Shown here one piece after another: positions 12,362 to 13,044 of a stretch of DNA of 64,000 nt. The notes beneath the pieces are model-generated. The model was not told the origin of the DNA and made no database searches. It was given only the letters and a program-made list of their open reading frames with translations. This DNA is from Escherichia coli (GTDB taxonomy: Bacteria; Pseudomonadota; Gammaproteobacteria; Enterobacterales; Enterobacteriaceae): NCBI RefSeq assembly GCF_045037415.1, contig NZ_CP173438.1, one strand, 5' to 3'. The position numbers and the translations under genes are program-made. How positions within the stretch are numbered: the first letter of the stretch is position 1; every line of letters begins with the position of its first letter.

Positions 12362-12560
12362 CAGAAGCGATCCTCTTATGAGATGTAGGGTGACATGGCG
12401 ATGCTCATTTCGTAGCCATAATCTAAAAATATCTACATTTCTGAAAAATGCGCATAAAAGTTACATATTGTTTTCTTATTGTGATCAAAAACAGCAAATT
12501 AATAACAAGTAATGTGAGGGATAAGAATTGGGTTGAAAGGAAATGAATAATTAAAACAAT
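12362..12560 (-). promoter_or_regulatory. csiD promoter region with a candidate CRP half-site
   Basis: AT-rich region upstream of csiD containing TGTGATCAAAAACAGCA (about 12479-12497); the TGTGA half is perfect, the other half is weak. The link to CRP/sigma-S control is from what is known of csiD, not shown by the sequence. Confidence 0.4.
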
Positions 12561-12879
12561 ATATTAAGTGTGCTTATACTCTTTTTCGAACTGGTGGCAT
12601 TTGTTTAAATGCTATTTAAACTGCTTTTTCAGAGTTCAACTTACTGAGTTCCGTGTCGACTAATGTGAGTAAGATCAATCGCATCCAACCTATGTTACTT
12701 GATGGCATCGATAACAATATTAATGAACATACAGATTCCGGGAAGGCTGGCTATGGGGGCAAATTATTCTCTTTCTGGAAACGGGTAAATAACAGTGACC
12801 ATTTGTCGAGAAGCTGATACTGAGCTGAGGGATACTGTATATGTCTGGACTGTAATTGGATGAATTCTATTCAGGGCGG

Positions 12880-12904
12880 GTCAGGACCAATAAAAAAGCC
12901 CGCA
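12880..12904 (-). terminator. Rho-independent terminator downstream of ssrA
   Basis: On the minus strand GCCCGC-UGAU-GCGGGC is followed by UUUUUUA; about 140 nt past the mature tmRNA 3' end. Confidence 0.55.
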
Positions 12905-13044
12905 TCAGCGGGCTTTAATGTCATAGGGAGTCGCGACTCCGTTGCGTATCCTTTTTTGTCTCCTCACCGTCTGGTCGGTGTCCTGCTGAGACTTATAACT
13001 TCCTGTTTTTGTTGGTGTAGTCCTTACACCGTCCAATCATTATT

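Follow-up and report, generated by a model that had tools for sequence, protein, structure and literature searches.

The ssrA-glaH junction of an Escherichia coli chromosome as a probable empty site of the tmRNA-gene integration hotspot

The 3′ end of the tmRNA gene is a classic, well-known integration hotspot. In the stretch of E. coli DNA analysed here (64,000 nucleotides of contig NZ_CP173438.1, hereafter "the window"), the mature end of ssrA is followed after only a few hundred base pairs by glaH (csiD), and the original prediction, made from the letters alone, took this to be a naive, unoccupied site. The locus thus raises a question in three parts: whether the site is empty, whether it has always been so, and whether the short DNA between the two genes is native or is what an older island, or its loss, has left behind. 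We hold, at a probability of about 90% and to judge from sequence comparison, that the window presents the empty (attB) state of the tmRNA-gene hotspot within an old Escherichia arrangement of ssrA, trailer, spacer, and glaH.

A short non-coding junction between two genes

Judged by nucleotide identity, the window chromosome is of E. coli phylogroup B2, ST131-type. Positions 11000-14400 (3.4 kb) match many ST131/O25b:H4 chromosomes at 100%, and it is from genomes identical across this interval that the annotation of glaH (formerly csiD), the head of glaH-lhgO-gabD-gabT-gabP-csiR, was taken. The tmRNA gene fits the Rfam model RF00023 end to end (full model, 1-374; 295.8 bits, E=1e-121), encodes the tag peptide ANDENYALAA as read by ARAGORN, and is 100% identical to its K-12 counterpart over the last 158 nt. 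The limits of the tmRNA given by ARAGORN and Rfam agree with the coordinates of the glaH ORF on the separation that had been predicted, i.e., 683 bp of non-coding DNA (12362..13044), inside which RefSeq has zero annotated features. The features of the locus are collected in Table 1.

Table 1. Features of the ssrA-glaH locus, in window coordinates.
Feature	Coordinates	Strand	Basis or remark
glaH (csiD), glutarate dioxygenase	11384..12361	-	ORF, 325 codons; RefSeq WP_000993107.1
glaH (csiD) promoter/regulatory region and 5′ UTR	12362..12559	-	contiguous K-12 homology upstream of glaH
AT-rich non-coding 333-bp segment	12560..12892	.	without K-12 match; GC 29-42%
Intrinsic terminator of ssrA	12889..12916	-	9-bp stem, 4-nt loop, T-run; terminator scan hit 12916-12895
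ssrA 3′ trailer, native, ~150 nt	12893..13044	-	predicted hairpins 13036-13009, 12992-12958, 12940-12927
Lineage-specific junction variant	13040..13044	-	directly 3′ of CCA end; alignment
attB region	13045..13089	-	nested identity blocks, three element kinds
ssrA (tmRNA gene), intact	13045..13407	-	ARAGORN; Rfam RF00023; RefSeq of identical genome; canonical ...CCACCA 3′ end at 13045

Several candidate features of the gap were considered and set aside. Only two ORFs of at least 50 aa occur there; that at 12653-12817 (54 aa) was not retained as a gene, since 1-2-nt indels break the orthologous spacers of two other species, nor was that at 12860-13066 (68 aa), which runs into the ssrA 3′ end and is unannotated and otherwise unsupported. 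Rfam hits to Leu_leader (23.5 bits, E=0.16) and tmRNA_permuted (20.3 bits) lie on the terminator/ssrA end, far below the gathering score, and were attributed to chance. A promoter-consensus scan of the gap gave hits that were not above those in shuffled sequence.

The further expectation that the gap would hold a terminator and the csiD promoter was borne out on both sides. At the ssrA end, the terminator found by the scan has the hairpin and U-run of an intrinsic (rho-independent) terminator, and its structure is kept across variants; in the K-12-type allele, RNAalifold identified a compensatory replacement of a G-C by an A-U pair, with both sides changed. Across E. coli lineages, in two further Escherichia species, and in the copies borne by phages, the trailer hardly varies. 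The near-invariance of trailer and terminator may reflect selection for tmRNA 3′ maturation or for termination, and lambdoid phages carrying the full trailer may also homogenise the two elements across strains. As a separate observation, positions 12927-12940 of the trailer form a perfect 14-nt palindrome, GGAGTCGCGACTCC, which reads GGAGCCGCGGCTCC in other lineages; the fifth pair of this palindrome (12940-12927 on the transcribed strand) covaries from U-A to C-G across lineages.

At the glaH end, region 12559-12362 is homologous to K-12 and orthologous to its characterised csiD upstream region. About 4,200 other E. coli genomes match it at ~89%, and the ~150 bp nearest glaH (to about 12508) are conserved in all Enterobacteriaceae loci examined, including those of Citrobacter and Salmonella. 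The csiD promoter depends on sigma-S and is under the control of cAMP-CRP, Lrp, H-NS, and CsiR (PMC6265302); sigma-S and cAMP-CRP regulation of the promoter in the window would carry over from that literature via K-12 orthology.

An observation in its own right concerns the operon beyond. Across glaH-lhgO-gabD (window 9000-12500), Pseudocitrobacter vendiensis and P. faecalis are 92-94% identical to E. coli in nucleotides and 95-98% in GlaH amino acids; the same region of Citrobacter and Salmonella is ~80% identical to E. coli. The Pseudocitrobacter likeness suggests either that the operon moved recently between the genera by horizontal transfer or that the taxonomy or an assembly is at fault.

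Comparison with K-12 and frequency of the empty site

In E. coli K-12 MG1655, the distance from the ssrA 3′ end to the glaH start is 33,029 bp and includes ileY (tRNA-Ile CAU), in keeping with the original prediction, by which several tens of kilobases and a tRNA-Ile gene separate the two genes in that strain. The prophage CP4-57 had also been placed correctly; its annotated feature (2755941-2777971; 22,031 bp) begins inside the ssrA 3′ end, with intA 200 bp downstream of ssrA. By BLAST, the ssrA-side match to K-12 reaches window 13043, and a second match, window 13059-12893, starts in K-12 at the CP4-57 attR (psaA, an annotated 14-bp ssrA pseudo-fragment), which reads CCGCCAGC-CCACCA. The two HSPs overlap by ~15-17 nt at window 13043-13059, i.e., the att core, and the trailer (12893-13044) is 88.6% identical to the K-12 sequence directly past attR. 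From the ssrA-side and attR-side matches, it follows that CP4-57 sits exactly at the ssrA 3′ end.

Beyond the trailer, K-12 carries 10,649 bp (ypjA, pinH′, ypjB, ypjC, ileY, and ygaQ′) in place of window 12560-12892, after which the match resumes, window 12559-11000 corresponding to the promoter and gene of K-12 glaH. As aligned, K-12 and the window are separated by two independent differences, namely the CP4-57 insertion and a separate 10.6-kb replacement of 333 bp. The original prediction, which expected one large insertion in K-12 at the end of ssrA, was thus right as to the insertion point but not as to a single event. The 333-bp segment has no match in K-12 by blastn (word size 7) or 6-frame tblastn. 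A similarity between the K-12 ssrA 3′ end and ileY (42 nt, 78.6%, E=0.003) was rejected as an att remnant, being the generic resemblance of acceptor and T-arm.

The expectation that neither K-12 nor most E. coli would share the contiguous junction also held. Among 5,426 complete E. coli genomes, the whole ssrA-glaH junction is contiguous in 725 (13%, about one in eight), and in another 1,389 an empty ssrA adjoins ypjA; the sum of these two strict queries puts empty ssrA sites at 2,114 or more (at least 39%). The 333-bp segment is present in single copy and constant context in 1,103 of the genomes, and from the comparison of this number with the 725 contiguous junctions, approximately one-third of such backbones would be occupied. 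A first estimate of 2,527 empty sites, obtained with the ssrA 3′ half plus 152 bp downstream, was inflated because lambdoid prophages (those of strain D5 and of the ST131 strain 4433) bring their own copy of the trailer; an intermediate junction query was dropped, as attR-only matches reached 81% coverage. When ST131 occupancy was sampled, 6 of 30 evenly spaced matches proved to be far-junction copies and not ssrA itself. A junction test that uses only ~150 bp past ssrA should therefore be treated with caution, as it overcounts empty sites (2,527 versus the robust 2,114).

An attachment site used by several kinds of element

For the window itself, the first part of the question turns on traces of an integrated element. 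No second ssrA 3′ end was found anywhere in the 64 kb, either at 25 nt with up to 3 mismatches or at 16 nt with up to 2, the only hit being ssrA itself. The repeat scan of 9000-17000 detected no direct repeats flanking the site, and all searches of the gap for signs of a degraded island or prophage (partial att repeat, integrase pseudogene, phage-related sequence) were negative. In the near-identical ST131-type genome SK1144, the span aligned to the window consists of core genes only, from nrdI to lepB, with no integrase; the sole tRNA gene of the 64-kb window is a tRNA-Glu in the rrn operon at 39355 (ARAGORN). The claim that no integrase, att duplication, or nearby tRNA is to be seen was thus upheld by searches of the full 64 kb and by the annotation of the near-identical genome, and the duplicated ssrA 3′ fragment that would have betrayed a degraded element is absent from the window.

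A separate indel lies elsewhere in the window, at ~626-873 between nrdH and ygaM, where the B2 strain UM146 has two extra genes (locus 6403-8256), of the carboxymuconolactone decarboxylase and PLP-dependent aminotransferase families. The window is without them, which makes this another B2 indel polymorphism.

The attB region comprises blocks of ~15 nt (13045-13059) for CP4-57 and P4-like elements, 27 nt exact (13045-13071) for lambdoid prophages, and 45 nt (13045-13089) for P2-like prophages, the last extended by 13040-13044 to a 50-nt phage block. In the mechanism we propose, integrases from several unrelated families of element, P4-like (such as CP4-57), lambdoid, and P2-like, would carry out recombination in the terminal 15-45 nt of ssrA. 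Each element would bring its own copy of the ssrA 3′ segment, leaving ssrA intact after integration, and the displaced native ssrA fragment would land at the far junction. None of these integrations is present in the window chromosome as it stands.

Occupied counterparts were found in close relatives. In the ST131 strain 4433, a lambdoid prophage of 45,094 bp lies between the displaced native ssrA fragment (27 nt exact, then the lineage's own AATAATG) and a reconstituted ssrA, with its integrase gene adjoining the glaH-side junction. UM146 has a related lambdoid prophage at the same position, with a degenerate ssrA fragment, and SCU-115 has a P2-like prophage at the site, the glaH-side ssrA fragment being ~40 nt with 7 nt of the block deleted. 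The downstream flank of the window is identical to the glaH-side junctions of all three strains. Because such occupied counterparts exist, the window represents the attB allele of a site that serves at least three element families, and natural lysogens at the exact sequence in the same lineage suggest that the site is competent for integrase-mediated recombination. Our search found no literature on prophage integration at ssrA in ST131.

Phage genomes point to the same sequence. RE2010, SEN8, and Cartapus match window 13040-13089 at 100%, phage LLS (PQ299149) carries an annotated "tmRNA pseudogene / attP", and Ayreon, phiNP, and PhiR12 phages match less closely, at 77-85% and along just part of the segment. 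The lambdoid copies that were read (LLS, and the ssrA-side ends of the 4433 and D5 elements) carry the whole ~150-nt host-like trailer together with its terminator. The result is a repeat of ~180 bp that flanks the prophage and mimics an empty site in simple junction tests.

Several side observations attach to these elements. The trailer copies lie at 25135-25368 of the 4433 locus, 1119-1352 of the D5 locus, and 1500-1700 of phage LLS, and such a copy gives the ssrA of the lysogen a terminator. The 4433 prophage has cargo next to ssrA (locus 21278-25134), namely a type II restriction endonuclease (WP_000110239.1), a DNA cytosine methyltransferase, and a GIY-YIG protein; the same endonuclease, WP_000110239.1, adjoins ssrA in strain D5 (locus 1-1118). 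Between its integrase and the glaH-side junction, the UM146 prophage has three cargo genes (hypothetical, STAS-like, hypothetical; locus 20663-22533), which may be a defence module. A trailer copy with 83% identity was also noted at 32037-32197 of NZ_CP081794.1 (E. coli CT01), a record of 43,671 bp that is probably an extrachromosomal or separately assembled genome of an ssrA-type phage with its attP.

Whether the site is naive as well as unoccupied is a different matter. Clean excision leaves no scar, as the normal cycle of integration and excision restores attB exactly, and the junction of the window is unusual in one respect. Its CCA end is followed by AATAA and then TGATTGG (CCA-AATAATGATTGG), versus ATCA in all other empty sites aligned (CCA-ATCATGATTGG); the sites compared at this junction were those of other B2 strains, K-12-type strains, two other species, and phage-borne copies. 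Across 12780-13196, the window departs from the other B2 empty sites at 13041 and 13043 only, and an exact 45-mer spanning the variant is present in 561 of the 5,426 genomes, consistent with ST131 and its close relatives. AATAA after CCA also occurs in the P2-like prophage 500465-1 and in S. houtenae.

A tentative explanation, to which we give perhaps one chance in several, is that an ancestor of ST131-type strains held a P2-like ssrA prophage and that gene conversion between the att repeats moved the phage version, AATAA, to the host side, where it stayed after a later excision. The two sole changes are 2 nt apart and directly after the CCA end, 500465-1 reads AATAA immediately beyond its CCA, the 50-nt block common to RE2010, SEN8, and Cartapus includes the same five bases, and the P2-like lysogen SCU-115 carries the AATAA variant at this very site. 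However, background divergence among B2 genomes is ~1-1.4% here, with other small clusters of changes, so that two adjacent changes are only mildly unusual, and slippage in the A-run plus one transversion would yield both. The exact restoration of attB by ordinary excision also makes the conversion step hypothetical, the AATAAT that follows ssrA in S. houtenae may mean that the allele simply circulates among enterobacteria, and no phage DNA is left in the window. The variant may thus mark an earlier lysogeny or be no more than an ordinary mutation. Were it a footprint, "empty" tmRNA-gene sites could record their past occupants. Of the description "naive, unoccupied", the second word is borne out by the lack of an att duplication, and the first says more than the sequence can prove, given scarless excision and the AATAA variant; an empty site throughout the history of the lineage is what we would infer, not what the junction itself records.

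Age of the short arrangement and relation to known systems

If the window presents an empty attB, the DNA between the trailer and the glaH promoter has still to be accounted for. Species-representative genomes were scanned with a GlaH query, and the resulting loci were then searched for tmRNA. In Escherichia sp. E1V33 and E. whittamii, ssrA lies 701 bp and 727 bp upstream of glaH, respectively; both loci are collinear with window 15999-9000 at 93-94% identity, and their spacers are collinear too, the 333-bp segment included (mean column identity 93%). Because of this collinearity, we regard the short spacer as old and native and not as an island remnant. The K-12-type break upstream of glaH recurs in E. 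albertii, where an ileY-like tRNA and a ygaQ homologue (68% identity) are found as well, and in Escherichia sp. MOD1-EC7003, so that both arrangements must be old. Outside Escherichia, none of the loci from the GlaH scan has glaH within 10 kb of a tmRNA gene. The polarity that we infer, tentatively, is that the short arrangement is ancestral and not just ancient.

The opposite polarity would have the short spacer as the derived state, the ancestral ypjA-ileY-ygaQ block having been lost by B2 and, via recombination, by some cryptic clades. This would suit the prevalence of the K-12-type break, which is seen in most E. coli (~4,200 genomes match just the first ~198 bp of the spacer) as well as in E. 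albertii and MOD1-EC7003, and the E. albertii ileY-ygaQ region, at just 68-75% identity to that of K-12, suggests a long residence. A deletion cannot, however, create 333 bp of unrelated sequence, and the segment resembles the K-12 block neither in nucleotides nor in translation, has a collinear counterpart in two further Escherichia species, and is replaced in K-12 by DNA with the hallmarks of acquisition, i.e., a tRNA gene, the invertase pseudogene pinH, and an autotransporter adhesin. We therefore consider loss of the block improbable, at roughly the odds of one in eight or less, and take the short arrangement, tentatively, as the older of the two.

To trace the origin of the 333-bp segment, the K-12 block and the E. 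albertii, Citrobacter, and Salmonella loci were searched by blastn (word size 7) and 6-frame tblastn, and only the orthologous copy in SCPM-O-B-8794 matched. Were the segment the eroded remnant of an island or prophage once resident at ssrA, its AT-richness (29-42% GC) and its restriction to certain lineages of E. coli (those 1,103 genomes) would be explained, and the DNA that separates the ssrA terminator from the glaH promoter does vary in content by strain, with the ypjA block, restriction-modification genes, or, in SCPM-O-B-8794, a secreted-protein gene. Yet neither an att repeat nor an integrase fragment is present in the segment, there is no conserved ORF, and the phage collection matches nothing past the trailer; the segment is single copy, is always in the ssrA-glaH context, is conserved in other species, and lies beyond the native terminator, not at attB. 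Such an ancestry is very improbable, and we continue to treat the segment as a native spacer. The strain just mentioned, filed as "E. coli" but a separate species representative, is of interest in itself; its homology to the window ends inside the ssrA terminator (breakpoint 12900), and an ORF of 349 aa (locus 239-1288), whose N terminus resembles a signal peptide and which has a terminator of its own, constitutes a third kind of content in this terminator-to-promoter interval.

Ultimately, the feature is the ordinary, already documented empty state of a classic hotspot, with no new system or mechanism, as the original prediction had itself allowed. What the window offers is a clean attB reference for a much-used site in its ST131-type/B2 form, one that can serve in calling ssrA insertions, in the design of integrase-based insertions, and in hotspot maps for genomes without ygaQ.

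Set beside its known occupants, the window shares its attB with CP4-57 (attL in ssrA; attR as the psaA pseudo-fragment), which is absent from it. The two states differ in the position of the terminator; in K-12, the first terminator-like hairpin past ssrA lies in CP4-57 DNA, where a GC-rich stem with its T-run stands ~45-80 nt beyond the CCA, whereas in the window the native terminator lies ~130-156 nt downstream of ssrA. The lambdoid ssrA phages (the 4433 and UM146 prophages, and LLS) use the same site and duplicate at least 27 nt of the ssrA 3′ end. The P2-like (Peduoviridae) element 500465-1 (Wadgaonvirus) carries the 45-nt ssrA block plus AATAA, identical to window 13040-13089, an att block shared by RE2010, SEN8, and Cartapus; in the window there is no such prophage, and just the 5-nt AATAA resemblance remains. 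As for the site itself, it is the same locus as "hotspot #9" of the E. coli pan-genome map of defence-island hotspots, the tmRNA locus between ygaQ and smpB (Hochhauser, Millman and Sorek 2023, PMC10121019), and the published share of unoccupied sites (247 of 649 genomes, 38%; PMC10121019, table S1) agrees with the 39% obtained here. That hotspot is anchored on the K-12 flank ygaQ and was mapped in just 649 of 1,351 genomes (PMC10121019); genomes without this flank may be among those left unmapped, and in the lineage of the window, which is without it, hotspot #9 appears as the shorter ssrA-glaH arrangement.
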